From assembly GCA_030679985.1 (NCBI GenBank), contig JAUXSI010000028.1, forward strand, positions 1 to 61,738: a stretch of 61,738 nucleotides of DNA. Direction: 5' to 3'. How positions within the stretch are numbered: position 1 is the first letter of the stretch; every line of letters begins with the position of its first letter. Positions 43,001-54,566 of the stretch are shown in pieces. Origin of the DNA: Candidatus Moraniibacteriota bacterium (GTDB lineage Bacteria > Patescibacteriota > Minisyncoccia > Moranbacterales > UBA2206). Position numbers and translations under genes: made by a program. The notes under the pieces were generated by a model. The model was not told where the DNA came from. It searched no databases and saw nothing but the letters and a program-made list of their open reading frames with translations.

Positions 43001-43460
43001 TTTCCGCCACGACCGGATCCTCGGCATCCTCGGGTAAATTTTCCCTGGCATCATCGACAGCATCCCGTAATTTCCTGATACTGCCTTCCAGATCAGCCTT
43101 GGCGCTGAATTCCACCGTGATGGACGAAACCGAATTGGAAGAGCTAGATGTGATTTTGTCGATATCCTTAAGGCCCGCAATTTCGGTTTCCAGCTTTTCC
43201 GTCACCAAATCTTCAACATTGGCCGGCGACGCCCCAGGGAAAACCGTCGTCACTATCGCAATCGGAATCTTCACTTCCGGATCGGATTCGACCGGCAAGG
43301 CGATATAGGAATATATTCCCGCACCGGCCAATAGCATTATCAGAAGCAGCACCACCCGGAAATTAGTGACAAAAAAATTCAAAAAACTCTTCCGGAGTTC
43401 CGGCCGGAATTCCAGTTTTTCAAGATATTGGTAATCGGAAGATTTGTTGTTATCAGGCAT
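40062..43460 (-). CDS. RND-family efflux transporter permease (AcrB/HAE-like)
   Basis: 1132 aa with 12-TM topology, two large loops and duplicated halves. Confidence 0.95.
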   Translation of the reverse strand: MPDNNKSSDYQYLEKLEFRPELRKSFLNFFVTNFRVVLLLIMLLAGAGIYSYIALPVESDPEVKIPIAIVTTVFPGASPANVEDLVTEKLETEIAGLKDIDKITSSSSNSVSSITVEFSAKADLEGSIRKLRDAVDDARENLPEDAEDPVVAEISVDDTPIFSVSIAGPYDGFVLRDFAEDVQAELEKISGVREVMVSGGDEREFEIAYDPEKLAFYGLSPLEANRIVAEANSQVPGGNFQGNDYNYAVRTDARFFDAEALGNIPVFHTAGGAIIYLKDMAEVRDRAIKKTVLSHFSRQGEKPADSVNIDIIKKTGGSIIKTADASKEKLDEMIKDAPAGITYDITIDTAKEIRKNFDQLVHDFILTIILVFAILFLVIGLKEALVASLAIPLVFFATFGVMLQVGISLNFLSMISLILALGLLVDDAIVVVSATKQYLRTGKFTPEEAVLLVLNDFKVVLFTTTLTTVWAFLPLLFASGIIGEYIRSIPITVSVTLLASLAIALVINHPLAAVLERVRLTRKMFFIWLALAASVGISGWYAADLVVRTVLMSAGAIAAYWMLDWYFRKGKAALLANAGLMEREWRDDGLIKEKLRTQGDHKDGAFLSRLIHGIIRFDRLIPVYEKYLRKILVTKKRRVATVIFVTVLLLTAVALPIAGVVKSEFFPVTDAELMFINIEAPVGLRLEETGKIVSQVEERLAGYPEIISLSTVVGSGGFSGNFVNSSANPSHRAQITIKLQEEEDRTLKSYEFAEVVRRDIADIQGAAITVQTLSGGPPAGAAFEAQILGEDLDVLDGIAQDLKPILSSVPGVVDAEISLKSSPADYVFLLDHGRMELLGIDALRIGSTIRMAISGTEVTEIIKGGDEIKVVARFGEGKIPDLEALQNLQIKNNAGESIFLRDVARIRLEPSVDKITRINQRRAVLLSAGVSGETSSTDAVAEFQNKIKDYKLPPGYEIAYGGENEQNAESVQSIIRAMVIALILIIATLVIQFNSFKKTFIVLVTIPLALIGVFFGLALFGVSLSFPALIGVVALFGIVVKNAIILVDKINLNIRTGIAFFEAVVDAGKSRLEAISITSICTIAGITPVTLSNETWLAMGSTIIFGLFLSSFLTLFVIPTLYVMMIDKDSDQ

Positions 43461-43461
43461 A

Positions 43462-44550
43462 TTATTGCGTGACTATCTTATCCCCATCCTGGACTAGCCG
43501 GCTTCCATCGATGATGATCAGGCTTCCGGCCGCCAGATCCGTCCGCACCTCGGCGTTTTCCCCGAAAATTTTCACGATTTCCGCCGGATTTTTCTTGGCT
43601 TGCCCGTCTTCCGCCACGAACAGATACGTTTCATTCTGTCCGACCGTCACGGCGGAAAGCGGCAAAATTATCAAATCATCACCCGCGGCTTCCCGCCGGG
43701 CATCGACAAAAACATCGACAACCGTTCCGATAGCCAAAGCGCCAGGCCCGGACGGCACCGCCTCCACCAAAAATCTCTTCGTCGCCGCATCAGCTTGGAT
43801 GGAAACATTGGCGATTTTAGCTGGGGCTTCCTTGCCGCCGCTATCGACAACCACGTTATCCCCCACTTTCACATTCGCCAAGCCTTCCTGGCTCACATAA
43901 AACTTGACTTTGATCTTCTCCGGCCGGGAAACGGTTGCCAAAATTTGTCCGGCCGAAATCGAACCGCCGACCGCGATGTTTTTTGCGGTCACGTAACCAG
44001 TGATCGGCGCCTTGACCAAGCGATTGTCCACCGCCGCGTCCAGCGCGATTTGCGCGTTTTGCTTTTGCAACTTGGCGATGTCTTTGGCAGTCTTATTGTC
44101 CTTCGTGTCATCCTTGTCATAATTCCGCTTAGCCTGGTCATAAGCCTCATCGGATTGCTTGAGCGCGTTTTCCAATTGCTGGATCTGGCCGTTAGCGAAT
44201 CCTTCCTTGCCTACACCCGCTAATCCGGCCGGATCATCGATCCGGACCAAAACTTTTCCGCGCCCCACTTGGTCGCCCAAACGGAAATCCACCGCGGTCG
44301 CTGTCCCATTTAGGCCAGCTATAATGTTTATTTCCTGATCGCCCGCGACAATCGCCGGATACTTGATCCGATCGCGCGATTCTTTCAAATTTTCGATTTT
44401 TTCAACGCCCACCACGGTCGCTTTCTTTTCCGCGACGAAACCGCCCAGACTTTTTTCACTTTCCCGAAAGACAGCCAAGGTAGCCACCAATCCCATTAAG
44501 ACGATTGAAATAAAAACCTTCCGTTTATTTTCTCCGATTATCCTCATCAT
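43462..44550 (-). CDS. RND efflux periplasmic adaptor subunit
   Basis: 362 aa with a signal anchor, a coiled-coil hairpin and lipoyl/beta-barrel segments. Its stop lies 1 nt before the RND gene. Confidence 0.9.
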   Translation of the reverse strand: MMRIIGENKRKVFISIVLMGLVATLAVFRESEKSLGGFVAEKKATVVGVEKIENLKESRDRIKYPAIVAGDQEINIIAGLNGTATAVDFRLGDQVGRGKVLVRIDDPAGLAGVGKEGFANGQIQQLENALKQSDEAYDQAKRNYDKDDTKDNKTAKDIAKLQKQNAQIALDAAVDNRLVKAPITGYVTAKNIAVGGSISAGQILATVSRPEKIKVKFYVSQEGLANVKVGDNVVVDSGGKEAPAKIANVSIQADAATKRFLVEAVPSGPGALAIGTVVDVFVDARREAAGDDLIILPLSAVTVGQNETYLFVAEDGQAKKNPAEIVKIFGENAEVRTDLAAGSLIIIDGSRLVQDGDKIVTQ

Positions 44551-44725: not shown

Positions 44726-45772
44726 CTAGATTTTTTCCCACGGCAAGCTTTCCTTCCCGAAATGTCCATACGCCGCCGTTTCTTGGAAGATTGGCAACCG
44801 AAGGCCCAAAGTTTCGATGATCGCTTGCGGACGGAAATCGAAATTCTTTTTGACGATTTCCGCCAAGCTCTCCCCTTTTTCATTAAGTGCCTCCACCATC
44901 AGCGGTTCAGCTTTGCCGATAGCATAGGCCACGCTCACCAAACATTCCTTGGCAAGGCCTTGGGCCACCATTTGTTTGGCCACATAGCGGGCCATATAAG
45001 CGGCGCTGCGATCAACCTTGGTCGAATCCTTGCCGGAAAAAGCCCCGCCGCCGTGCGGCACCAATCCGCAATACGTGTCCACCATGATTTTCCGGCCGGT
45101 CAATCCCGTATCCGCTTCGAATCCGCCTTGGACGAAATTGCCGGTCGGATTGACCAGAATTTCAATTCCGGAAATGTCCCCGATCACCGGGATGATGACA
45201 CCTTCGATGATTTGCTGGCGGATCTGGGCGCTGTCGATGGACTTGTCATGCTGGCAACTCACCAGCACGGAAGATATTTTTCCGTCATGGACGCTGATTT
45301 GCGTTTTCCCATCCGGACGCATCCAGGCGAAATCCGCGTCATTATTCCTCAGCTCTTCCATTTTTTTCGCCAGCGCATGCACCTTCACGACCGACTCCGG
45401 CATAAATTCCTCCGTTTCGTCCGTCGCGTAGCCATACATTATCCCCTGGTCTCCCGCGCCGCCCGTATCGACTCCCTGGGCGATATCCGGCGATTGCTTG
45501 ACGATCCGCACTGAGATATCCAAATCCTGGTCATAACCGATTTTTTTATATACCTCCCGCGCTATCTTCTCAAAATCGACATCCGCCTTAGTCGTCACTT
45601 CCCCGCCGATGACCAGCGTGCCGTGGCCGCCGAAAGTTTCCACTGCCACGCGGCTCATCGGATCCGCCTTGAGGCAAGCGTCCAAGATAGCATCGGAAAT
45701 CTGGTCACAGACTTTGTCGGGATGGCCGGCCGTGACGCTCTCTACCGTATAAGTTTTTGGTTTATAGAACAT
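44726..45772 (-). CDS. metK: S-adenosylmethionine synthase (methionine adenosyltransferase), short form
   Basis: 348 aa with ESVTAGHPDKVCDQISDAILD, GAGDQGIMYGYA and GGGAFSGKDSTKVDRSAAY. Confidence 0.95.
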   Translation of the reverse strand: MFYKPKTYTVESVTAGHPDKVCDQISDAILDACLKADPMSRVAVETFGGHGTLVIGGEVTTKADVDFEKIAREVYKKIGYDQDLDISVRIVKQSPDIAQGVDTGGAGDQGIMYGYATDETEEFMPESVVKVHALAKKMEELRNNDADFAWMRPDGKTQISVHDGKISSVLVSCQHDKSIDSAQIRQQIIEGVIIPVIGDISGIEILVNPTGNFVQGGFEADTGLTGRKIMVDTYCGLVPHGGGAFSGKDSTKVDRSAAYMARYVAKQMVAQGLAKECLVSVAYAIGKAEPLMVEALNEKGESLAEIVKKNFDFRPQAIIETLGLRLPIFQETAAYGHFGKESLPWEKI

Positions 45773-46410: not shown

Positions 46411-47079
46411 ATGAAAATTCTTATTATCGAAGACAATGAGGATATCGCCGAATCACTGAAGATGAGCCTGGAAGAACATTGCTTCGCCGTGGATGTCGCC
46501 AAAGACGGGGAAAGCGGCGCCTATCTGGCCAAAACCAACAACTACGACCTCATCATCCTGGATTACGTCCTTCCGAAAAAAGACGGCTACCAGGTCTGCA
46601 AGGAGATACGCGAAAGGAAAAGCGACGTATATATCATCGCTATGTCGGTCAAAACGGATGTTGAAACGAAAGTCGATCTCTTGGAAACAGGGGCTGATGA
46701 TTATATCATCAAGCCTTTTTCTTTTTCCGAAGTCCTAGCCAGGATCAATGCCCTGCTCAGGCGGTCGCGGGACATCAAACCGCCTATCATCAAATTCGAT
46801 GATTTCACCCTGGACACCCGGAATTATTCCGTAAAAAAAGGCGACGAGGAAATATATCTGACCCGCAAAGAAGCGATGATACTGGAAACCCTGGCAAAAA
46901 ACAAGGGTCGGATAGTTTCCCGATCGATGATTTTCGAAGAAGTCTATGACACCAACGCCGATTTCCTTTCCAACGCCATCGAAATGCACATCCGCAACCT
47001 GAGGAAAAAATTAGGCGGCAAAAAAGACGCGACATCCATAAAAACGTTCCCGGGACGCGGTTATATGATCGAAGGATAA
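46411..47079 (+). CDS. Response regulator, OmpR/PhoB family
   Basis: Start at Met49 (MKILIIEDNEDIAESL...). Receiver Asp in DLIILDYVLPKKDG and a C-terminal winged helix (...LTRKEAMILETL...IEMHIRNLRKKL...GRGY). Confidence 0.9.
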   Translation: MKILIIEDNEDIAESLKMSLEEHCFAVDVAKDGESGAYLAKTNNYDLIILDYVLPKKDGYQVCKEIRERKSDVYIIAMSVKTDVETKVDLLETGADDYIIKPFSFSEVLARINALLRRSRDIKPPIIKFDDFTLDTRNYSVKKGDEEIYLTRKEAMILETLAKNKGRIVSRSMIFEEVYDTNADFLSNAIEMHIRNLRKKLGGKKDATSIKTFPGRGYMIEG

Positions 47080-47125: not shown

Positions 47126-47153
47126 TTGACTTATACTGGAATAGTGTTGTAAT
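47126..47153 (+). promoter_or_regulatory. Sigma-70-type promoter between the regulator and kinase genes
   Basis: TTGACT (47126-47131), a 16-nt spacer, then TGTAAT (47148-47153) with an upstream TG (47145-47146). Confidence 0.5.
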
Positions 47154-47220: not shown

Positions 47221-47340
47221 ATGGATAAACTTATCAAAGAAATCCTTACCAAGAAAGCGACCCGTAACAGCGCGGCCTTAGTCGCCCTGATTGCGGCAGT
47301 GATGGTCGCAGGATCACCATGGAACGCGCCACAAATCTAG
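47221..47340 (+). CDS. Possible 39-aa small hydrophobic protein (or part of a non-coding leader)
   Basis: ORF below the track cutoff: MDKLIKEILTKKATRNSAALVALIAAVMVAGSPWNAPQI*. It has no SD, lies between a promoter (47126) and a terminator (47364), and has one TM-like segment. Confidence 0.3.
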   Translation: MDKLIKEILTKKATRNSAALVALIAAVMVAGSPWNAPQI

Positions 47341-47363: not shown

Positions 47364-47400
47364 TAGCCGGCTGATGCGGTTTGTCGGCCGGCTATTTTTT
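47364..47400 (+). terminator. Intrinsic terminator upstream of the kinase start
   Basis: TAGCCGGC (47364-47371) pairs with GCCGGCTA (47387-47394), followed by TTTTTT (47395-47400). Confidence 0.6.
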
Positions 47401-47419
47401 AACCCTATCGGAAACGCCT

Positions 47420-48835
47420 ATGTTTGGAAAAATAATCGTTTTTTTAAAAAAAACCGTCACGCCCGTTTCGTCCGACGAAGACAAAGCGCGGCGGGAATTC
47501 ATCGCCAATATTCTTTTATTATCAAGTATCTTCTTGATATTTGCAGCTTTCATCGCAAATTTAATATATCAACTTGGAAACACCCAGCCATCACTAGCCG
47601 CTAAATTCATCTTGATACCATTCTTCCTTTTGGTTGCGCTATACGTTCTTTCTCGCAAGGGGTATTTTTATTATTCTTCGTTTCTTCTTTTATTCACACT
47701 TTTTTTGTTTGCCAGCGCCATGGGATATTATTGGGGCGTAGATTTGGAAGTTGAACTTTTCATATATGTCCTCGTTGTAGTGATGTCTGGAATACTGATC
47801 AGTGCCCGCGCTTCTTTCGTGGCAATGTGTTGCGTAAATGCCTTTCTTATTATTACTGGATTTCTACACGGCACCCAAACAGTTATTCCGGATAGATCAT
47901 GGAGAACTGCTGAGCTTTGGGATTTTGGAGAAATATCGATGACTTCCGTAATCTTTCTTACTATCGCTACCGTTTCCTGGCTTTCCAACCGTGAAATCGA
48001 AAAATCCCTGCGCAGAGCCCGCCGATCGGAAGCGGAACTGAGAAAAGAACGTGATTCCCTGGAAATCACCGTGGAAAAAAGGACGCGCGAACTCAAAGAG
48101 GTGCAATTGGCGGAAATGGCCCATCTCTACCGCTTCGCGGAATTCGGCCGCCTCTCCGCAGGGCTCTTCCATGACCTGATAAATCCGCTCAATGCCGTAT
48201 CGCTCAATATGGAAAAAGTCAAAATCCGGGATTGCTATAAAAACGAAGTGGACGAAGCCAAAAACTATCTGGACAAATCCATCGTGGCGGTCAGAAAAAT
48301 GCAAGATTTCGTAGCGGCGGTCAGAAAACAAATATCCCACCAAGCGGAAGACAAATCATCCATTCCCCTGCACGAAGAAATCCGCCAGGTAGTGGATATA
48401 TTGGCCCACAAGGCTTTGCAGAACGACATCGAAATCAAATTTTCATTTTCTAGCGATATCAACATCTTCGGCAATGCGATCAAATTCAACCAGGTGGCGA
48501 TGAATCTCGTAAACAACGCGATAGACGCTTATAGCGGTTTTGACGGAAAATTCGACGCGAAAAATAAAACCCGCGAAGTTTCCATCACTCTGGACGAAGA
48601 GGACGGCGTGGTAAGTCTGGTCGTCCAAGACAACGGCGCCGGCATCTCCGAAAACAATATGCGCCGGATATTCGAACCTTTTTTCAGCACCAAAAATTCC
48701 AATAAAGGCGCCGGCATCGGCCTCTCATTGGTGAAAAGGATCGTCGAAGAGGATTTCAACGGCACGATATCCGTCGAAAGCCGGGAGAATATCGGCACTA
48801 AATTCACCGTTAAATTCAATAAAATAAAAAAATGA
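47420..48835 (+). CDS. Sensor histidine kinase with six-TM, loop-less sensor domain
   Basis: Start taken at Met14 (MFGKIIVF...), downstream of the terminator. Six TM helices have short loops. H-box LSAGLFHDLINPLN, N-box NLVNNAIDA, G1 DNGAGI and G2 GAGIGLSL are present. Confidence 0.88.
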   Translation: MFGKIIVFLKKTVTPVSSDEDKARREFIANILLLSSIFLIFAAFIANLIYQLGNTQPSLAAKFILIPFFLLVALYVLSRKGYFYYSSFLLLFTLFLFASAMGYYWGVDLEVELFIYVLVVVMSGILISARASFVAMCCVNAFLIITGFLHGTQTVIPDRSWRTAELWDFGEISMTSVIFLTIATVSWLSNREIEKSLRRARRSEAELRKERDSLEITVEKRTRELKEVQLAEMAHLYRFAEFGRLSAGLFHDLINPLNAVSLNMEKVKIRDCYKNEVDEAKNYLDKSIVAVRKMQDFVAAVRKQISHQAEDKSSIPLHEEIRQVVDILAHKALQNDIEIKFSFSSDINIFGNAIKFNQVAMNLVNNAIDAYSGFDGKFDAKNKTREVSITLDEEDGVVSLVVQDNGAGISENNMRRIFEPFFSTKNSNKGAGIGLSLVKRIVEEDFNGTISVESRENIGTKFTVKFNKIKK

Positions 48836-50655
48836 AAGAACTTTATCTCCGCCTCAACAGCCGTCAACAAGAAGATGGCAGCTTCTTGGATGCTGCCGGT
48901 TCCCCATCGATATTACATACCGCATTGATCCTGTCAGCCCTGGAAAAATCCGGACAAGACCCGCTGATCGAAAAAATCAGGGACAAGGCCGCCAGATTCC
49001 TTCTGTCCAGAAAAGATGCCGATTGGAAATTCTCCCCGGAAACCGGCCTCAACTTCTTCGCCCTAGCAGCTTTGGCGGCTTATGACAAAAATCTGCTAGA
49101 TGGAGAAGCGATGGCTAAAATCCTGATCGATCTGACCTCGCTGGAAAGCCAGGAGGGCGGTCCGTATTTTTCACGAGCTGAAGACCGGAGCATCGACCTA
49201 GCAACCAATGCCGGCATCGCGAACTTCCTGTCAGAAGAAGGAGTGGAATTGCCGGAACTGACGAAGTTATTCGAAAACGCCATCCGAACGAAAAATTTCA
49301 AATCTTCTTTTTTCACCTCGGACTATCCGGCCATCTATTTGATTTCAAAGATCTGCCCGGAAGGCCGCAAGCAGGAATTCATAAATTTCATCTTGGAAAA
49401 AAATAACCGGGAAAGGGGCGTTGCCAGCCTATTGGAAACCGTCTTGGCGCTGAACGCGCTTTTGAATTTAGGCCATCAGGGCGAGGAAGCGCAAGACATC
49501 CTGAACTATCTGGAAAATTCAACTGAGCGACTGGATTCCACCTACCCATTCTATGTGGATGGGAACGGCCTGCCGGTGGACAGTACGGCCGATTTGAACG
49601 GGGCATTGTATCTGGAAGCTTTGCGCAAAAAAGAATCTCCCTCCCGCCAAAATCAAAACGGACCGGTCGCGGATCTGGACGGCCCGGAAAAAGAAATGTT
49701 GGAATCGATTTTGGCAACCGCCGAAAAAAGGTTCGCCCATCTTCCTGCAGAAGTCCAAAAACTGGCCGGACGCGAAATCAGAAAAACCATCAGCGGAAAC
49801 CGCGACAACCAGATGTCGCTTATGGCCTATTATATGAAAAAATCCCTGGGCGAAAAGGCGGCAGGAATTCCCGATTCCCTGGTAGCCGAAATGGGATTGG
49901 CCAACGTATTTTTCTGGACGGCCTTCATCATCTATGACGATTTCTGGGACGAAGACGAAGCGGCCGATACTGCCGTCTTGCCGGTGGCTAACCTATACGC
50001 CCGCAGTTATGTCGATTTTTTCAACTTCGTCCTGCCAGCGGAAACCGGCTTTAACGAATTTTTTCACGGGCTTATGGACGGTTCGGACGCGGCCAATACT
50101 TGGGAAAACCTCCATTGCCGCACGAAAGTCGAGGGCTCAAAATTTTTCATCCCTAAAAACTTGCCTGATTACGGGGATTACGACCTCAAATACCGTCCGG
50201 CTTCCGGCCAGATATTAGGACCGGTGGCGATGCTGGTCCGGTTGGGCTATGGATTGGAATCCCCCGAAGTGACGAACCTGGTCGCCTATTTCAAAAACTA
50301 TCTGATCGCGATGCAATTGAATGACGACGCGCACGACTGGGAAGAAGATATGAAGCGGGGCCACCTGAGCACGGTCGTCACTTTGCTCCTGAAAGATCTG
50401 GATTGGCCGGAAGATTCCATCGACCTGGAAACCGACCTGGAAGAACTGCGGAAGGTTTTCTGGTTCAAAACGATCGGCAAAGCGGCCCAGGCAGCCGCTT
50501 CCTACGCGGAAAAATCGCGGCAAGCCCTTGCCGCGATAACCATTCTGGAAAATGCGGCGCCTCTGGAAAAAATCATCAACGCCACGGAAAGCGTCGCCCG
50601 CAAAGCCCTGAAGGAACAGGCAGACACCGTCAGTTTTTTGCAAACATACCATTGA
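48832..50655 (+). CDS. Two-domain isoprenoid-enzyme-like protein: N-terminal alpha/alpha-toroid repeats and a C-terminal helical domain with two DDxxD motifs
   Basis: 607 aa with RQQEDGSF (aa 11-18), SQEGGPYF (aa 106-113), FIIYDDFWDEDE (D369-D373) and MQLNDDAHDWEED (D498-D502). Its ATG overlaps the kinase stop (ATGA). Confidence 0.7.
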   Translation: MKELYLRLNSRQQEDGSFLDAAGSPSILHTALILSALEKSGQDPLIEKIRDKAARFLLSRKDADWKFSPETGLNFFALAALAAYDKNLLDGEAMAKILIDLTSLESQEGGPYFSRAEDRSIDLATNAGIANFLSEEGVELPELTKLFENAIRTKNFKSSFFTSDYPAIYLISKICPEGRKQEFINFILEKNNRERGVASLLETVLALNALLNLGHQGEEAQDILNYLENSTERLDSTYPFYVDGNGLPVDSTADLNGALYLEALRKKESPSRQNQNGPVADLDGPEKEMLESILATAEKRFAHLPAEVQKLAGREIRKTISGNRDNQMSLMAYYMKKSLGEKAAGIPDSLVAEMGLANVFFWTAFIIYDDFWDEDEAADTAVLPVANLYARSYVDFFNFVLPAETGFNEFFHGLMDGSDAANTWENLHCRTKVEGSKFFIPKNLPDYGDYDLKYRPASGQILGPVAMLVRLGYGLESPEVTNLVAYFKNYLIAMQLNDDAHDWEEDMKRGHLSTVVTLLLKDLDWPEDSIDLETDLEELRKVFWFKTIGKAAQAAASYAEKSRQALAAITILENAAPLEKIINATESVARKALKEQADTVSFLQTYH

Positions 50656-50704: not shown

Positions 50705-51259
50705 ATGCCGAATGAAATCATTCTCGTTGATAAAAAAGACCGGGTGGCCGGAGCCGCTTCCAAAATAGAAGTCCATCAGAAAGGAAAATTGCACCGGGCT
50801 TTTTCCATTTTCATCTTCAACCGGAAAGGAGAACTGCTTCTGCAACAGCGGGCTGATGGCAAATACCACTCCGGCGGACTCTGGACCAACACCTGCTGCG
50901 GACACCCGCGTCCCGGGGAAACGGTTGCTTCCGCCGCCCGCCGCAGGCTCCGGGAGGAAATGGGACTCGATTGCCAATTGACGAAAATATTCGATTTCAT
51001 CTACCGGGCCAAATTGGATAACGCTATGTGGGAATACGAATTCGACCATGTCCTGATCGGAAAATTCAACGGAAAACCGAAAATCAACCCCGCCGAAGCC
51101 GCGGCCTTCAAGTGGATCGACCGGAAATCCCTAGCTCGCGATATCCGGCAAGATCCGCGCGGATATACCCGGTGGTTCAAAAAATGCTACATCCAAGTTT
51201 TCAAGGCGACTAAGGATAAAACGCCCTTCAAGCAGATCAGCGACCCAGTACGAAATTAA
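50705..51259 (+). CDS. idi: Isopentenyl-diphosphate delta-isomerase, type 1 (Nudix fold)
   Basis: 184 aa with KGKLHRAFSIFIFNRKGELLLQQRA..K...GLWTNTCCGHP and RRLREEMG, then EYEFDHV. These are the catalytic Cys and Glu contexts of type 1 IDI. Confidence 0.9.
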   Translation: MPNEIILVDKKDRVAGAASKIEVHQKGKLHRAFSIFIFNRKGELLLQQRADGKYHSGGLWTNTCCGHPRPGETVASAARRRLREEMGLDCQLTKIFDFIYRAKLDNAMWEYEFDHVLIGKFNGKPKINPAEAAAFKWIDRKSLARDIRQDPRGYTRWFKKCYIQVFKATKDKTPFKQISDPVRN

Positions 51260-52208
51260 AAAGATAGCCGGTAAATACGATGCCCGCGCCGACGATGCCC
51301 GCAAAAATAAGGATAAGCTTGATTTTCATCACTTTTTTGAGAATCATAAACTCCGGCAGCGAGAGCGCGGTGACGGCCATCATAAAAGCTAAAGCAGTTC
51401 CCATAGCGACGCCCTTTTCAGTTAATGCCCCGACGAGCGGAATTACCCCGGCCGCATTGGAATAGAGCGGGATGCCGATGAACACTGCCAATGGCACGGC
51501 ATACCACCTGTCCGCTCCGGCGTATTGCGCCAGGGCCGCAGTCGGCACATAACCATGGATCCACGCGCCGACGCCGACGCCGATAACGATATAGGGCCAA
51601 ACTTTTTTTATAATATCCCAAGTATAATTCTTGGCATACTTCACTCTTTCTTCCCAAGCCATTTCCGGCAACTGGAACTGGCCGTTGAGCTTGTTTTTAT
51701 AGACGAATTCTTCCACCAGATTTTCAACTTTCAATTTGCCGATAATGATTCCGGAAAAAATAGAGATGATAAGTCCGCTGACGATATAAAGCAAAGCGAT
51801 TTTCCAGCCAAACATTCCAAATAAAAGAACTAGCGCCACTTCATTGATCATTGGCGACGCGACTAAAAAAGAGAAGGTTGTCCCTAGCGGTACGCCAGCC
51901 TGTACAAAACCCAGAAATAACGGCACAGCCGAGCAAGAACAAAAGGGGGTGATGATCCCCAGAAACGATGCCAGAATATTGCCGACATATTTTTTTTCGT
52001 GCGAGAGGATATTTCTGATTTTTTCCGGAGGAAGAAACGAACGGATGATGGAAACGGTGAAAATAATCACAACCAGAAGCAGGAAAATCTTGATTGTGTC
52101 GTAAATGAAAAAATCGACCACTTCAGCCAATAGCGTCTTGGGCATGATTCCGAAAACGGAATACGTCAGCCAATCAGCCAATATTTGGACAGGATAAAAT
52201 ATGTTCAT
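51237..52208 (-). CDS. Permease of the PF03773-like (ArsP/'predicted permease') family with a CxC motif
   Basis: 323 aa with about 8 TM helices and ...ITPFCSCSAVPLFLGF.... Last gene of the ArsR-controlled cluster. Its 3' end overlaps the convergent idi gene by 23 nt. Confidence 0.8.
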   Translation of the reverse strand: MNIFYPVQILADWLTYSVFGIMPKTLLAEVVDFFIYDTIKIFLLLVVIIFTVSIIRSFLPPEKIRNILSHEKKYVGNILASFLGIITPFCSCSAVPLFLGFVQAGVPLGTTFSFLVASPMINEVALVLLFGMFGWKIALLYIVSGLIISIFSGIIIGKLKVENLVEEFVYKNKLNGQFQLPEMAWEERVKYAKNYTWDIIKKVWPYIVIGVGVGAWIHGYVPTAALAQYAGADRWYAVPLAVFIGIPLYSNAAGVIPLVGALTEKGVAMGTALAFMMAVTALSLPEFMILKKVMKIKLILIFAGIVGAGIVFTGYLFNFVLGR

Positions 52209-52308
52209 AAATGTTTTTAATTACAATAGTTGCAAGTTAATTTAGATTTTTCATATTCAGTCACGGAAACCATCTGGATAGTCGCGACGATTATGTTTTT
52301 ATTTTTCA

Positions 52309-53028
52309 TCAGGATAGATTGATTAAATATTTAACGAGATATCGGAGATAATAAATTCCAGTTATCATAAAAATAGCCGCCACGGAATAGCGCATCGCTT
52401 TTTCGATCTTACCCATCGCGTTATACATCTTGCCCACCTTCTCCACGCTGAACGCCAAAATGATTGAAAAGATTATCACTGGCAAGCCTGTTCCTAGAGC
52501 GAATAATGGAGGTAAAAGCAAGCTTTCACTTGATGATAAAACCAATGGGACGAGCATTCCAAAAAATAAAACTCCGCTATATGGACAAAACGCCAGAGCG
52601 AACAAAACTCCCAGAAGTAAAGTTCCGATATGCCCCTTAGTTGCCAGCCACTCCTTGGCTTTTTCCACTTTCCTACTTTTGGAACCGAAATTGATTTTTA
52701 TCACCCCGAACATAACGAGAGAAATCAAAATCAAAACGATTCCCAAAATTTTATCTCCCCAGCCCTGAAAAATACTGGCAATCGAAAAAGCCGAGAAACC
52801 GAAATAAATCAGCGTCGCCAAAAGCGTATAGCTCATTCCTCTTCCCAGCGTATAAATCAAACCGCTGACCAGCGTATGCTTGGGAGTTTTTATGTCTTTG
52901 GAAATATAGGCAATGGCAGTGATGTTGGTCGCCAAAGGACAAGGGCTGATGGAAGTCATCACGCCCAAAAGAAAAGCCGTGAAAAGCGGAAAATTATATT
53001 GGTCGATTAAGGCGTTTAAAAATTCCAT
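52309..53028 (-). CDS. DsbD_2/CcdA-like thiol-disulfide membrane protein (ArsG-family-like, tentative)
   Basis: 239 aa with 6 TM helices. The N-terminal helix contains ...GVMTSISPCPLATNITAIAYI... Confidence 0.7.
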   Translation of the reverse strand: MEFLNALIDQYNFPLFTAFLLGVMTSISPCPLATNITAIAYISKDIKTPKHTLVSGLIYTLGRGMSYTLLATLIYFGFSAFSIASIFQGWGDKILGIVLILISLVMFGVIKINFGSKSRKVEKAKEWLATKGHIGTLLLGVLFALAFCPYSGVLFFGMLVPLVLSSSESLLLPPLFALGTGLPVIIFSIILAFSVEKVGKMYNAMGKIEKAMRYSVAAIFMITGIYYLRYLVKYLINLS

Positions 53029-53132
53029 TATACAAATTGATTTTTATTGGTTATTCCATGCAACAATCGATTGCACGCCTCACTAGCTCCCTCAACTTTC
53101 CGGTAAATCCGGTCGGGGGTCATTTTACTTAC

Positions 53133-53930
53133 TCAGTTTAATTTTTGCTTAAACAAATCAATGATGTCTTTTTCATTCGTATAGCATTTCCCGTCCGCCC
53201 AAAGAAACGGAACCCCGAATGCTTCAGGGTCGACATTGCACCGCATGGCGTCTTCTGCCATCTGTTCCGCATCAGTTTCATTTTTGTCAACATTTTTTTC
53301 TTCAAAAGCCATTTTTTCTTTCACGCCATTGTCCGCCAAATATTTTTGAATATTAACGCAATTTGGGCAATTATCTCCGGAATAAAAAGTGATGTTCATT
53401 TTTTCCATCTCTTTTTGAGTTCCAGCGGAAACCGTTTCGCCGATCATCCCTCGCAATTTTTTGGACAGATAATCGGAAAGAGCCTTCTGGTCTCCTAAAA
53501 GCCTCCAGGCCTGCGCCTCTTCTTGGATGTTGTCTTGGCCGTCAATGATGGCATTCAAAAACAGCGAGGTGCCGGCTGCTTGGAATTTGGCCGCCACTGC
53601 TTTGTTCTCCGGCAAATCCACGTTTATTTCCCTGAACTCAAGTTTACCGCTTTTAATTTCCGTCTGGAAGGATTCATCAACCATCGTCTTGATATATTGC
53701 CCCATCGTTATGCAGGAATAACAACGGTTAGTGGAGTGAAATTCATATATCTGGACTTTCTCCGCCGGTTTGGTTTGTCGAACTTCCGCTGCTCCGGAAT
53801 TGTCCGCTTGCACGTTCGCATCAGTATCGATTGATTCGGTCTTTTTGTCCGGTCCGACGCTTATATAAATGAGCGCAATAGCAAAAAATAACACTCCCCC
53901 ATAAAGCAAATATATTCCTAACTTTTTCAT
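53133..53930 (-). CDS. Membrane-anchored fusion of two thioredoxin-fold modules (ArsF-like CxxC domain plus glutaredoxin/NrdH-like CxxC domain)
   Basis: 265 aa with an N-terminal TM helix. First module: ...IYEFHSTNRCYSCITMGQYI. Second module: ...ITFYSGDNCPNCVNIQKYL...GVPFLWADGKCY. Confidence 0.65.
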   Translation of the reverse strand: MKKLGIYLLYGGVLFFAIALIYISVGPDKKTESIDTDANVQADNSGAAEVRQTKPAEKVQIYEFHSTNRCYSCITMGQYIKTMVDESFQTEIKSGKLEFREINVDLPENKAVAAKFQAAGTSLFLNAIIDGQDNIQEEAQAWRLLGDQKALSDYLSKKLRGMIGETVSAGTQKEMEKMNITFYSGDNCPNCVNIQKYLADNGVKEKMAFEEKNVDKNETDAEQMAEDAMRCNVDPEAFGVPFLWADGKCYTNEKDIIDLFKQKLN

Positions 53931-53955
53931 AGAATGGTCTTATTCCGATGATTAT

Positions 53956-54249
53956 TTAACAATTTCCGCCACAAGAACAAATCCCTACGGAATCATCAGT
54001 AGGCTTATTATCCGCGAACATCTTCCTAAGCTCCTCTACGCCAGGCACCATCCCAGCCACCAATACCTTTTCATCCACCACGAGTGCCGGTGTGCTCATA
54101 ATTCCATAGCCCATAATATCTTCGATTCGGGTAACTTTTTCAACGACTGCCTCCATCTTCAGTTCCTCCAGGGCTCGCTTGGTGTTTTGTTCCAATCGTT
54201 GGCAGTTAGGGCATCCGGTGCCCAGAATTTTGATGTTCATTTGGTTCAT
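53956..54249 (-). CDS. Small thioredoxin-family protein (redox-active disulfide protein 2 type)
   Basis: 97 aa with IKILGTGCPNCQRLEQNTKRAL...STPALVVDEKV and an extra C-terminal CSCGGNC. Confidence 0.85.
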   Translation of the reverse strand: MNQMNIKILGTGCPNCQRLEQNTKRALEELKMEAVVEKVTRIEDIMGYGIMSTPALVVDEKVLVAGMVPGVEELRKMFADNKPTDDSVGICSCGGNC

Positions 54250-54566
54250 TTGATTATTTGATTAAAAAATTTCTTGTATTTCCTGATAGTTTTCCTATCC
54301 AAGCTGTAGCGGACAAACTTACCTTCCCGTTTTTCAACCAGAAGTCCGATGGCTTTCAAATGTTTGAGATGATGTGAAGCCAACTTATCCGATATGCCGA
54401 CGGCCGGAACGATCTCGCAAACGCACTTCGGACCGGTTTGCAAGATACAAAGGATTTTCAGCCTATTGGAATCCGAAACGGCGCGCAAAAAAGCGTATGT
54501 TTTGCCGACATTTTCCGCTTCAGTTGAATTTTTCGCGCAACATCTGAATTCCATAGGGCGTATCAT
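54246..54566 (-). CDS. ArsR/SmtB-family transcriptional regulator
   Basis: 106 aa with ...LRAVSDSNRLKILCILQTGPKCVCEIVPAVGISDKLASHHLKHLKAIGLV..., a winged HTH with a CVC metal/metalloid-sensing motif. Confidence 0.9.
   Translation of the reverse strand: MIRPMEFRCCAKNSTEAENVGKTYAFLRAVSDSNRLKILCILQTGPKCVCEIVPAVGISDKLASHHLKHLKAIGLLVEKREGKFVRYSLDRKTIRKYKKFFNQIIK

Follow-up and report, generated by a model that had tools for sequence, protein, structure and literature searches.

What is the role of a 607-residue protein that joins two isoprenoid-type folds in a bacterium of the Candidatus Moraniibacteriota? Its gene lies in a window of 61,738 nucleotides, the whole stretch of DNA that was analyzed, and its product is identical in sequence to the NCBI entry 'hypothetical protein Q8L10_02920 [Candidatus Moranbacteria bacterium]'. 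A preliminary description had taken it for an alpha-beta synthase or cyclase that stands alone and whose family is unassigned. That interpretation needs revision, since the residues of the IPP site lack conserved counterparts, the partners of the gene are a two-component system and a small peptide gene, and idi accompanies it only occasionally. The genes and elements concerned are the following.

46411 to 47079, forward strand: OmpR-type response regulator of 222 aa, first gene of the module
47126 to 47153, forward strand: possible sigma-70-like promoter upstream of the peptide gene (TTGACT, 16-nt spacer, TGTAAT)
47221 to 47340, forward strand: unannotated gene for a precursor-like peptide of 39 aa
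47364 to 47404, forward strand: terminator- or attenuator-like hairpin with a T-run, directly 3' of the peptide gene
47420 to 48835, forward strand: sensor histidine kinase of 471 aa, counted from ATG 47420
48832 to 50655, forward strand: Q8L10_02920, two-domain protein of 607 aa, putative peptide tryptophan prenyltransferase
50705 to 51259, forward strand: type 1 isopentenyl-diphosphate isomerase (idi)

The open reading frame of Q8L10_02920 is intact, and it forms with the response regulator, the peptide and the kinase a cassette that is conserved across Patescibacteria. The response regulator, whose start at ATG 46411 was verified, carries the Pfam domains Response_reg (E 1e-27) and Trans_reg_C (E 5e-21). 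The kinase carries HATPase_c (E 6e-25) and a weak HisKA match; as read from its sequence, six predicted transmembrane helices are followed, with no extracytoplasmic domain, by a DHp segment (FHDLINPL) and HATPase_c. Its mechanical reading frame begins at TTG 47381, within the hairpin. In a census of 82 loci, 73 have an orthologous kinase (phmmer E between about 1e-60 and 1e-232) at position -1 and on the strand of the enzyme gene, and 63 have an orthologous response regulator, likewise on that strand, at -2 or -3. The stop of the kinase gene overlaps the start of the enzyme gene in the window (ATGA) and in most loci, and in two clades the two proteins are fused in frame with almost no linker; the fusion loci examined (L087-L089 and the P0008/P0009 clade) still contain the response regulator and the peptide. 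The synteny persists where identity to Q8L10_02920 has fallen to 27-30%, in Saccharimonadia, CPR2 and Minisyncoccus. We found no prior description of this module in CPR bacteria.

Type 1 idi (NCBIfam NF002995, E 3.5e-50) begins 49 nt after the enzyme gene. This proximity had been offered as support for an isoprenoid substrate, but the cluster census finds idi adjacent in just 7 of the 82 loci (direct phmmer matches give about 10). A canonical IspA/IspB-like polyprenyl synthase occupies its place in six other loci, which implies that Q8L10_02920 is not a replacement for such a synthase. Two independent isoprenoid-supply genes have joined the module in different lineages, and idi is a facultative accessory, which would supply DMAPP.

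The small gene between the regulator and the kinase encodes MDKLIKEILTKKATRNSAALVALIAAVMVAGSPWNAPQI, with a single tryptophan (W34) five residues from the C-terminus and a conserved, leader-like N-terminal region. A peptide HMM run over 26,857 six-frame segments gave one match per locus in 70 of the 82 loci, and every such ORF (33-40 aa) sits between the response regulator and the kinase on the operon strand. All 68 distinct peptides contain exactly one Trp, located 1-6 residues from the C-terminus, preceded by Pro at -1 in 61 and by Gly at -3 in 46; L9 and R15 are each retained in 66. The codon-position entropies (1.31, 0.86 and 1.76 bits) bear a coding signature, the N-terminal 16 residues being conserved as amino acids with variable third codon positions. 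Public gene callers annotate the peptide as a gene of 36-38 aa in three loci (L003, L088 and L089), while it belongs to no family in Pfam or NCBIfam. Many of the peptides exhibit a hydrophobic middle segment, which is not conserved in Saccharimonadia, e.g. AAVEDALMRQAAAVPW. The promoter upstream, recognized by eye and not called by a consensus promoter scan, is a weak candidate. The hairpin downstream (13-bp stem, 7 GC pairs) begins 23 nt past the peptide stop. The 70 nt after the stop fold with an MFE of -20 kcal/mol or lower in 25 of 68 loci, compared to 5 and 7 of 68 for two control windows within the kinase ORF. The hairpin is thus a tendency, strong in about one third of loci and not universal. 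A stable hairpin after a small gene is typical of precursor genes.

The assignment of the enzyme to no family was borne out: whether the query was the complete protein or either half, no model in Pfam or NCBIfam came in at E<=0.1, and sequence and profile searches of the PDB returned nothing meaningful. The proposed two-domain architecture is supported by a confident AlphaFold2 model (mean pLDDT 94.4, pTM 0.87), which is all-helical with a disordered linker at residues 272-280. The sequence landmarks reported earlier (RQQEDGSF at 11-18, SQEGGPYF at 106-113, DDFWD at 369-373 and DDAHD at 498-502, the latter two 129 residues apart) are all correctly placed. The parts of the protein discussed below are these.

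48832 to 49641, forward strand: alpha/alpha toroid (aa 1-270), resembling the beta domain of class II terpene cyclases
49144 to 49209, forward strand: invariant loop E105-x3-GGPY112 ... D122 ... N126
49681 to 50652, forward strand: domain of trans-isoprenyl-diphosphate-synthase fold (aa 284-607)
49936 to 49950, forward strand: first Asp-rich motif, D369-D-F-W-D373
50314 to 50349, forward strand: second Asp-rich motif, Q495-L-N-D498-D499-A-H-D502-W-E-E505-D506

The C-terminal half adopts a trans-prenyltransferase fold, as had been predicted. Its best Foldseek matches are isoprenyl diphosphate synthases (IPPS) of PF00348, namely E. coli OPPS/IspB (5ze6_D/3wjo_B; TMt 0.76, rmsd 3.6 Å) and hexaprenyl- and solanesyl-diphosphate synthases (HexPPS 3aqb; OsSPS3, TMt 0.71), and it also superposes on the indole prenyltransferase Ord1 (9v4h). 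The alternative of a class I terpene synthase found little footing: among the top 50 structural matches the only such enzyme is variediene synthase, a prenyltransferase-cyclase fusion that gives no informative full-length alignment (rmsd 26-28 Å). Alignment to IPPS by hhalign (E 1.6e-4, 219-275 columns) brings both Asp motifs into exact register with FARM and SARM, the equivalence suggested earlier, as represented by IspB: D369/D370/D373 fall on D84/D85/D88 and the second motif, which corresponds to the 'FQxxDDxxD' SARM, on Q208/D211/D212/D215/D219; the segment D506..G510-H-x-S falls on IPPS region VII. In an alignment of 141 family members, reaching down to 27-30% identity, the six aspartates of the two DDxxD motifs are 92-100% conserved: D370 at 92%, and D369, D373, D498, D499 and D502, together with D506, Q495, N497, E505 and W362, at 99-100%. 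This conservation is far beyond chance. A third acidic cluster is formed by D416, D419, N422 and E425. Since the ligands of Mg2+ and diphosphate and Q495 are kept at 99-100%, a working diphosphate site is likelier than a degenerate scaffold. A Gln upstream of the second motif is common to Trp-prenylating IDS-like enzymes (PMC13290415).

The domain differs from canonical IPPS in matching no PF00348 model and in its IPP site. The region I 'GGKRxRP' loop is deleted, and the basic residues of 'RRG' and 'KT' are not conserved; the residues that bind IPP (K45 and R48 in region I, R93 and R94) never vary among eight canonical IPPS sequences and have no conserved equivalent here. Their absence, shared with authentic ComQ, argues against chain elongation.

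The N-terminal half, modeled alone (pLDDT 95.1, pTM 0.93), is a toroid of the terpene-cyclase type, in agreement with the preliminary description. The best Foldseek match is the small myxobacterial SHC-like protein 8pak (E 3.4e-7), and the class II beta domains as a group (AsDMS, a drimenol synthase with TMq 0.73, SsDMS, ent-CPS 5bp8, 8pak and MstE) score E 3e-7 to 1e-5 with TMq 0.67-0.73, ahead of generic (alpha/alpha)6 toroids (cellobiose 2-epimerase, GH76 and complement TED), whose scores are only slightly lower. Unlike the class II cyclases, the toroid has neither the DxDD acid motif (a D.DD pattern scan of the N-terminal half confirmed its reported absence) nor DxDTT. In 28 of the 141 homologs it is cut to ~100 residues, with about residues 70-170 kept, and the loop of E105, GGPY, D122 and N126 is the sole part of the toroid that survives; E105, G109, G110, P111, Y112 and N126 are 99% conserved (n=141). 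The missing DxDD and the truncated forms make a cyclase activity doubtful.

Several systems which prenylate peptides on tryptophan invite comparison. ComQXPA likewise consists of four adjacent genes on one strand, coding for an IPPS-fold enzyme with FARM, a precursor with Trp near the C-terminus, a multi-helix membrane kinase and a response regulator. Its gene order is Q-X-P-A (PMC4008528), whereas here it is regulator, peptide, kinase and enzyme; ComP and ComA are of the HisKA_3/ComA type, in contrast to the HisKA-like kinase and OmpR-type regulator of this module, and ComX is longer (52-73 aa versus 33-40 aa). ComQ matches PF00348 (E 2e-13) and aligns with IPPS at E 2e-15, but the C-terminal domain of Q8L10_02920 aligns with ComQ at only E 0.074, in the FARM region, and has in addition a full SARM and the extra 280-aa toroid domain. 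Judged by sequence, Q8L10_02920 is not a ComQ-family member, and its similarity to ComQ does not detectably exceed its similarity to any IPPS; the module resembles ComQXPA in design, not in orthology.

StheQ of Sphaerobacter thermophilus is a ComQ-family enzyme of known crystal structure, with GGPPS and Ord1 as its closest structures, which prenylates StheX on the Trp second from the C-terminus (bioRxiv 10.64898/2026.08.29.745113). It has in common with Q8L10_02920 the IPPS fold, an adjacent small peptide, a Gln one helical turn before the second motif and the match to Ord1; it differs in being single-domain, in the length of StheX (69 aa) and in genomic context, the preprint mentioning just the stheQ-stheX gene pair and no kinase. 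Its pseudo-SARM (N215, D216, D219) binds no metal, as is also the case for ComQ (bioRxiv 10.64898/2026.08.29.745113), whereas Q8L10_02920 keeps an invariant DDxxDxxED. This full SARM and the third acidic cluster speak against too close a parallel, and the chemistry could therefore differ from that of StheQ and ComQ. In the PalP/PalX/PalQ system of Paenibacillus alvei, a kinase, an NHLP precursor with C-terminal Trp and a Trp C3-prenyltransferase of the isoprenoid-synthase superfamily, also remote and unassigned, are clustered in a similar manner. PalQ favors an acceptor Trp that closely follows a Gly, which recalls the Gly at -3. PalX is of NHLP type with a strictly C-terminal Trp, whereas the peptides of this module belong to no known family and extend 1-6 residues past theirs; PalQ, set beside Q8L10_02920 by description and not by sequence, is a single-domain enzyme. 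The two-domain architecture itself recalls ChrPC and NctPC, which PMC13290415, summarizing Hubrich et al. (Chem 2024), presents as fused prenyltransferase-terpene cyclase RiPP maturases. Compared by that description only, they combine the same two fold types, although the letters PC suggest the opposite order to the N-terminal toroid seen here, and the RiPP clusters given there as their context are of proteusin, Nif11 or lasso type, with no counterpart to the two-component system of this module; the lack of DxDD and the truncated toroids set Q8L10_02920 further apart.

On the strength of fold, motifs and synteny, we give a probability of about one half to the reading of Q8L10_02920 as the modifying enzyme of a signaling module resembling ComQXPA and PalPXQ, which would prenylate the Trp of the small peptide. 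The C-terminal domain would bind an allylic prenyl diphosphate (perhaps DMAPP, GPP, FPP or GGPP) via Mg2+ coordinated by D369/D370/D373 and D498/D499/D502/D506; this substrate may at times come from the neighboring idi or canonical polyprenyl synthase. The enzyme would then ionize the diphosphate and move the prenyl cation onto W34 in its G-x-P-W motif, on the model of ComQ, StheQ, PalQ and the P domain of ChrPC, which carry out the same transfer on their own peptides. The E105/GGPY/D122/N126 loop of the toroid might dock the basic leader (L9, T10, K12, R15), or else the toroid might serve in further processing of the prenyl chain. The kinase would presumably sense the lipidated peptide in or at the membrane and phosphorylate the OmpR-type regulator, with the signal either secreted, as in quorum sensing, or acting in cis. 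Several observations sit uneasily with this reading: the orphan copies L015 and L016 have neither kinase nor peptide, the module neighborhoods contain no conserved exporter or leader peptidase, the peptides are shorter than ComX and StheX, and the ComQXPA, PalPXQ and StheQX literature consulted offers no case of a biosynthetic enzyme joined to its own receptor kinase.

The intimate association with the kinase could be explained differently, by Q8L10_02920 being a non-catalytic, ligand-sensing accessory subunit of a three-component system, which binds a prenyl diphosphate (e.g. FPP or undecaprenyl-PP) and reports the isoprenoid or lipid-carrier pool, with the peptide acting separately on the kinase as a regulator or membrane-associated modulator. 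Near-universal adjacency, translational coupling, the almost linkerless fusions and the lack of an extracytoplasmic sensor domain are in keeping with such a subunit. Ligand binding would likewise call for conserved diphosphate-binding residues, but the invariance of all metal ligands in both motifs and of Q495 is more typical of catalysis, and to our knowledge non-catalytic IPPS-like subunits of heteromeric synthases have lost their Asp-rich motifs. The hydrophobic segment of many peptides would suit a membrane-associated modulator, except in Saccharimonadia, and the lone Trp in its G-x-P-W context would be left unexplained. Since, moreover, the peptide-associated IDS-like proteins characterized so far are all Trp prenyltransferases (PMC13290415), we consider the accessory subunit unlikely.

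The preliminary reading, in which Q8L10_02920 works on its own, either as a prenyl diphosphate synthase of beta-alpha didomain type or as a terpene synthase or cyclase of the IDS-like kind, and makes a small-molecule terpenoid while the two-component system merely regulates its expression, appears quite improbable. The IPPS fold, the intact FARM and SARM, the cyclase-like toroid, the isoprenoid genes adjoining some loci and, on one distant homolog, matches below threshold to Terpene_synth_C (E 0.002) and polyprenyl_synt (E 0.03) are consistent with it; set against these are the loss of the IPP-binding residues, a top 50 of structural matches that includes no dedicated class I terpene synthase, the toroid features noted above, and invariant partners that are a kinase and a Trp peptide instead of isoprenoid-pathway genes. 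Sensor kinases, furthermore, are not normally fused to the targets which they regulate. Least credible, at long odds, is that the small ORF is a leader or arrest peptide controlling transcription or translation of the kinase and enzyme genes, with the function of Q8L10_02920 unrelated to it. Arrest and attenuation peptides such as TnaC and SecM depend on conserved Trp and Pro, and a Pro-Trp pair near the stop followed by a strong hairpin in the window, with structure enriched across loci, fits that pattern. The hairpin is nevertheless strong in only about one third of loci, the variable Trp-to-stop distance is hard to fit to a fixed stalling geometry, the N-terminal conservation is of amino acids and not of third codon positions, and it would be hard to see why the ORF so strictly accompanies an IDS-fold protein.

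The ComQXPA system was found only in Firmicutes in the 2014 census (PMC4008528), whereas the hosts of the present module are Patescibacteria. The invariant linkage of response regulator, small Trp peptide, histidine kinase and Q8L10_02920, which the preliminary description had overlooked, points to peptide prenylation and signaling in these bacteria rather than to terpenoid metabolism.

The module considered here lies entirely on the forward strand of the window and ends in the 607-aa two-domain protein X:

46411-47079, forward strand: response regulator (RR)
47221-47340, forward strand: peptide ORF of 39 aa, MDKLIKEILTKKATRNSAALVALIAAVMVAGSPWNAPQI
47364-47404, forward strand: terminator-like hairpin with a 13-bp stem and a T-run, between the peptide gene and the kinase
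47420-48835, forward strand: histidine kinase (HK), from its probable start
48832-50655, forward strand: X, an N-terminal toroid (N-domain) joined to a C-terminal domain of trans-isoprenyl diphosphate synthase (trans-IDS, IPPS) fold (C-domain)

The reading frame of X is intact, and the preliminary description of it holds in its particulars: each of the motifs reported for X lies at the residues to which it was assigned, no D.DD or D.D[TE] pattern occurs in residues 1-290, and a type 1 idi gene follows after 49 nt (NCBIfam NF002995, E 3.5e-50). Its "unassigned family" label was also accurate, since curated models and PDB searches return nothing meaningful. No Pfam or NCBIfam model matches the whole protein or either half significantly, the only traces being Prenyltrans and SQHop_cyclase (E about 0.25, residues 8-64). 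PF00348 (polyprenyl_synt) gives no match at E<=1 to the whole of X or to its C-terminal half, and E 0.032 at best (cut-off 27 bits) with the distant homolog P0160. Sequence and profile searches of the PDB produced only spurious ribosomal-protein matches, with no IPPS in the profile search. NCBI lists the identical protein as "hypothetical", from a MAG of Candidatus Moranbacteria, and the 273 word-indexed homologs are all unnamed or "hypothetical". Clustered at 50% identity, the family counts 1,414 representatives at E<=1e-3 and, among them, 782 at E<=1e-30; an alignment of 141 sequences contains 28 short (417-478 aa), 37 middle (490-559 aa) and 76 long (560-703 aa) forms.

The two-domain architecture proposed from the sequence is borne out by an AlphaFold2 model built on 74 homologs (pLDDT 94.4, pTM 0.87), which is all-helical with a disordered linker at residues 272-280, and by Foldseek matches in the PDB that separate cleanly by domain. 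The C-domain superposes best on long-chain trans-polyprenyl diphosphate synthases, such as E. coli OPPS (TMt 0.76, rmsd 3.6-4.0 Å); its other matches include rice SPS3 (0.71), M. luteus HexPPS, GGPPSs and the indole prenyltransferase Ord1. When the 141-sequence C-domain alignment was compared by hhalign with IspA, IspB and six CPR polyprenyl synthases, the match reached E 1.6e-4 over 219-275 columns. D369/D370/D373 of X fall on the first Asp-rich motif (FARM) of IspB, D84/D85/D88, and Q495/D498/D499/D502/D506 fall on the second (SARM), the "FQxxDDxxDxxxD" residues Q208/D211/D212/D215/D219, while D506..G510-H511-x-S513 falls on IPPS region VII, "D..GKxT". These residues, including the two aspartate triads whose conservation had been left to be checked, are 92-100% conserved across the 141 sequences, down to 27-30% identity. 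Fold matches, hhalign equivalence and conservation together uphold the FARM/SARM assignment, and the C-domain thus carries what marks an IPPS at the level of fold, namely an all-alpha structure with a DDxx(xx)D FARM and a DDxxD SARM. The second motif is an invariant DDxxDxxED with Q-x-N just before it. A third acidic motif, "lmDxLDaANxWExxxCR" (D416, D419, N422, W424, E425, C429, R430; window about 50077-50121), occupies the helix between the two Asp-rich motifs and is 90-99% conserved; nothing in the IPPS alignment corresponds to it, and it could be a family-specific acceptor-binding site or an additional metal site.

The basic residues of region I, RRG and KT in trans-IPPS bind the diphosphate of the homoallylic substrate, IPP. 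Eight canonical synthases all carry K45, R48, R93 and K170, and R94 is close to invariant among them. In X, a 15-residue gap falls exactly at the region I loop "GGKRxRP" (GGKRIRP), and the columns aligned to "RRG" after the FARM (R93/R94) and to "KT" of region V (K170) are neither basic nor conserved; only R391 and R430 are invariant. Since the residues that would bind the IPP diphosphate are missing, chain elongation by X seems unlikely from the alignment. X does not match class I terpene synthases either: PF03936 and PF19086 do not match X, its second motif aligns to SARM and not to NSE/DTE, and no dedicated class I terpene synthase occurs among the best 50 Foldseek matches, where the only terpene synthase is a prenyltransferase-cyclase fusion, variediene synthase, at an uninformative rmsd of 26-28 Å.

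Modelled alone (pLDDT 95, pTM 0.93), the N-domain matches the beta-type toroids of class II terpene cyclases best, including a small SHC-like protein of myxobacterial origin (8pak, E 3.4e-7), the drimenol synthase AsDMS (TMq 0.73), ent-CPS and PvCPS, and these outrank generic (alpha/alpha)6 toroids such as cellobiose 2-epimerases, GH76 and complement TED. The toroid fold is thus matched, whereas the DxDD/DxDTT acid motif of class II cyclases is absent from residues 1-290; E105 and D122 are the only conserved acidic residues of the domain. In the 28 short homologs the toroid is reduced to about residues 70-170, which include an invariant E105-x3-GGPY112...D122...N126 loop, so that the N-domain has been trimmed repeatedly around this EGGPY loop. 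Both the absent acid motif and this trimming make autonomous class II cyclisation unlikely as the conserved function of the toroid.

Genomic context was compared across 79 loci from species-representative genomes together with several metagenomic contigs, by searching the ORFs of the loci with the window neighbours and then clustering all neighbours; counts refer to 82 non-redundant loci. Nearly all carry patescibacterial labels (Paceibacteria, Moraniibacteriota, Magasanik-, Falkow-, Doudna- and Kaiserbacteria, CPR2 and Saccharibacteria), and complete genomes with the locus include those of Saccharibacteria YM_S32 and the cultivated Minisyncoccus archaeiphilus (PMX.108). Other labels occur at L025 (OZ246416.1), L019-L021, L032, L041, L046 and further loci, as well as at L024 and L013. 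Several of these loci derive from TPA MAGs labelled "uncultured Gammaproteobacteria", one of them an 886-kb "chromosome" of a length usual for CPR; Omnitrophota, Bacteriovoracaceae and Pacearchaeota also appear among the labels. The non-patescibacterial labels look unreliable, and the X family may be exclusively patescibacterial.

An orthologous HK stands directly upstream of X on the same strand in 73 of the 82 loci (phmmer E about 1e-60 to 1e-232), and an OmpR-type RR (Trans_reg_C) occupies position -2 or -3 in 63. The kinase contains HATPase_c and a weak HisKA (PF00512) match, with no PF07730. Its stop codon overlaps the start of X in most loci, as ATGA in the window, and in two separate clades HK and X form a single in-frame gene with hardly any linker between them (e.g. 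"...FPVRNKF-MDNPVNYLLSRQQKDGSF..."). In contrast to these partners, idi adjoins X in only 7/82 loci and was therefore rejected as a defining partner. A canonical IspA/IspB-like polyprenyl synthase adjoins X in six loci that lack an adjacent idi, mostly of Saccharimonadales (phmmer E 1e-11 to 1e-27), and usually overlaps the stop codon of X; with it, some lineages have attached a second isoprenoid-supply gene to the module.

Polyprenyl synthase genes beside X
L065, 7841-8908
L083, 7773-8813
L074, 6315-7370
L079, 5018-6076
L071, 6272-7309, reverse strand
L057, 3353-4369, there between RR and HK

Other recurrent neighbours (Fic, RadC, MarR, a type I restriction-modification methylase, ABC transporters, a P-type ATPase and YceG) are regarded as incidental, as each occurs in at most 10 loci and at no fixed position. 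Directly downstream of X, small Mu-Com-like zinc-ribbon proteins recur (CxxC...CxxC; weak Pfam matches to Zn_ribbon_Com), as a 153-aa form at +1 in nine loci and as 62-63-aa copies in the fusion loci. In the window no zinc-ribbon gene follows X, its place being occupied by idi. These proteins may represent a fifth, facultative component of the module.

Zinc-ribbon genes downstream of X
L087, 7820-8011 and 8405-8593: two copies
L089, 4682-4873 and 5212-5400: two copies
L030, 7448-7909: example of cluster C4
L010, 7770-8243: example of cluster C4

Two closely related Paceibacteria loci (L015, 865-2580; L016, 5992-7707) carry X as an orphan copy, and neither the kinase nor the regulator nor the peptide gene lies within reach. 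These copies lie directly upstream of type I restriction-modification genes with a tRNA-like sequence nearby, and a mobile element may thus have relocated them. The wider surroundings in the window include, beyond idi, a reverse-strand cluster at 51237-54566 (an ArsP-like permease, a DsbD-like membrane protein, two thioredoxin-like proteins and an ArsR-type HTH regulator) and, upstream, a SAM synthetase (44726-45772) and an RND efflux pump (40062-44550). The 72%-identical locus L001 shares the ArsP permease, one thioredoxin and the HTH_5 regulator, with an additional cation-efflux gene; in more distant loci the redox/metal cluster, the synthetase and the pump are not conserved with the module.

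The gap between RR and HK (median 236 nt) contains a 33-40-aa ORF that is mostly unannotated. A peptide HMM, constructed from the ORFs found in these gaps and searched against 26,857 six-frame segments of 20-150 aa, from the loci and the whole window, recovers one segment per locus in 70/82 loci, always on the operon strand, with its end at most about 100 nt before HK in nearly all of them; in most loci without a match the sequence ends before that point. All 68 distinct sequences contain exactly one Trp, located 1-6 residues from the C-terminus, preceded by Pro at -1 in 61 and with Gly at -3 in 46. The N-terminal consensus is M-x-x-[LIV]-[IL]-x-x-[IVF]-L-T-x-K-x-x-R, in which L9 and R15 are each present in 66/68. 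Entropies of 1.31, 0.86 and 1.76 bits at the three codon positions form a protein-coding pattern, and the alternative frames are interrupted by stops in 64/68 and 57/68. In a few contigs public gene callers had already predicted the ORF; the fusion loci are among them and show the order NUDIX(idi)-RR-peptide-HK::X. No Pfam or NCBIfam family matches the peptide, ComX (PF05952) included. A conserved transmembrane micro-protein was considered and rejected, the Saccharimonadia variants having no hydrophobic segment.

Structure after the peptide gene is enriched across loci without being universal: the 70 nt following its stop codon have an MFE of -20 kcal/mol or lower in 25/68 cases, compared to 5/68 and 7/68 in control windows. 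A universal terminator was rejected, since a loose pattern scan gave 22/68 versus 19/68 in controls and the MFE indicates enrichment only. An Rfam scan of the entire window detected no RNA family. The mechanically called TTG start of HK (47381) falls inside the window hairpin, and the true start is thus probably, from the sequence, the ATG at 47420 (MFGKIIVFLKK, cf. MLEKIIIFLKK in L001).

The known systems closest in design to this module are those that prenylate a Trp-containing precursor. In ComQXPA, the Trp of ComX is prenylated by ComQ (at C3, as a pyrroloindoline) and the product, a pheromone, is sensed by ComP; the precursor is encoded by a small adjacent gene and carries a Trp within the C-terminal 5-10 residues (PMC4008528); the ORF found in 70/82 loci, with its Trp 1-6 residues from the end, has this property. 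The ComQXPA kinase carries PF07730 and PF02518 and acts with a ComA-type RR, whereas here an adjacent, same-strand 6-TM HK is found with an OmpR-type RR. The layout is analogous to ComP/ComA, yet the proteins belong to other subfamilies and are not orthologous. ComQ passes PF00348 (E 2e-13) and aligns by hhalign to IPPS at E 2e-15, while X fails PF00348, and its C-domain (141 sequences) compared with 14 authentic ComQ proteins reaches only E 0.074 (probability 0.8%) over 41 columns around the FARM, which led to rejection of X as a ComQ orthologue. X has a full, invariant SARM as well as the third acidic cluster (D416, D419, N422, E425), whereas the ComQ family has a pseudo-SARM (NDxxD or weaker); the corresponding residues are N215/D216/D219 in StheQ and "SGDYY" in B. 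subtilis ComQ. Authentic ComQ proteins nevertheless lack the same IPPS residues as X, in the K45/R48 region and RRG, which supports a functional analogy. The gene cluster of PalQ, a distant relative within the isoprenoid synthase superfamily, includes a kinase and a precursor ending in Trp. According to a 2026 review, Trp is the target of every trans-IDS-like peptide prenyltransferase characterised so far, and these enzymes have in common a Gln upstream of the SARM; the RiPP maturases ChrPC and NctPC join such a prenyltransferase to an MstE-like monodomain class II cyclase, by which the attached prenyl chain is cyclised (PMC13290415). X matches this architecture of fused prenyltransferase and cyclase-like domain at the fold level only, ChrPC being compared through its description there (PMC13290415).

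A precursor with a near-C-terminal Trp, a kinase, a response regulator and an IPPS-fold enzyme together follow the ComQXPA design, and on these computational grounds, with the PalQ and ChrPC precedents, we propose that the RR-peptide-HK-X module is a prenyl-peptide signalling system, a reading to which we assign a probability of about 0.5. The C-domain, whose allylic-diphosphate site is intact and whose IPP site is absent, would ionise a prenyl diphosphate and alkylate W34, the single Trp of the window peptide. The invariant acidic loop of the toroid may dock the conserved basic leader of the peptide or process the prenyl group, and the resulting lipopeptide would be the ligand of the kinase, which is polytopic and has no extracytoplasmic domain. 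X would thus work like ComQ or PalQ, yet it is not a member of the ComQ family (InterPro IPR033965).

A rival explanation makes X an accessory subunit through which the kinase senses prenyl diphosphates. The HK::X fusions and the translational coupling of the two genes favour such a role, which leaves the peptide and its invariant Trp unexplained. The preliminary description regarded X as a stand-alone synthase or cyclase, here a terpenoid enzyme under two-component control, and this reading is weakened by the lost IPP site, by a toroid that is dispensable and by the nature of the invariant partners, a kinase and a Trp peptide. The small ORF might alternatively be a regulatory leader or arrest peptide; the variable distance from Trp to stop and the conservation of the N-terminus at the amino-acid level weaken that explanation.

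The CPR, or Patescibacteria, form a very large and mostly uncultivated radiation with minimal genomes, and its organisms are reported to rely on hosts for lipids. To our knowledge, the communication of such reduced-genome episymbionts is essentially unknown, and Trp-prenylated peptide pheromones were long thought to be limited to Bacillus and its relatives. In the literature searched, no paper was found linking CPR/Patescibacteria to ComQXPA, to prenyltransferases or peptide prenylation, or to terpene synthases. A 2014 census placed ComQXPA in Firmicutes only (PMC4008528), and in a 2026 preprint a single homolog from Chloroflexi is put forward as the first case outside that group (bioRxiv 10.64898/2026.08.29.745113). 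The proposed system is best classed as known logic, a prenyl-Trp peptide with a two-component system, in which the enzyme lineage and architecture, the precursor family and the very large host group are new. We give a low probability to the broader proposition that CPR widely carry a lipopeptide circuit in which a 33-40-aa peptide is Trp-prenylated, and perhaps terpene-cyclised, by an enzyme translationally coupled or fused to the sensing kinase. In its furthest version, the enzyme-kinase complex would make and read the signal in cis, reporting isoprenoid-precursor supply or membrane state rather than cell density.

The question is directly testable, as the locus occurs in cultivated or complete-genome strains (Minisyncoccus archaeiphilus PMX.108 and Saccharibacteria YM_S32). 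If the prenyl-peptide reading is true, a function would be provided for a large family of "hypothetical proteins" and for a small gene absent from most annotations, and a structurally distinct enzyme, combining a toroid with a full-SARM trans-IDS domain, would join the few peptide Trp prenyltransferases of interest for peptide lipidation. The Patescibacteria would then be the largest reservoir of Trp-prenyl peptide systems, as about 1,400 clusters (50% identity) are distributed over Paceibacteria, Saccharibacteria, CPR2, Doudnabacteria and the cultivated Minisyncoccus, and their reduced-genome episymbionts would gain a concrete, testable mechanism of cell-cell or host-sensing signalling.
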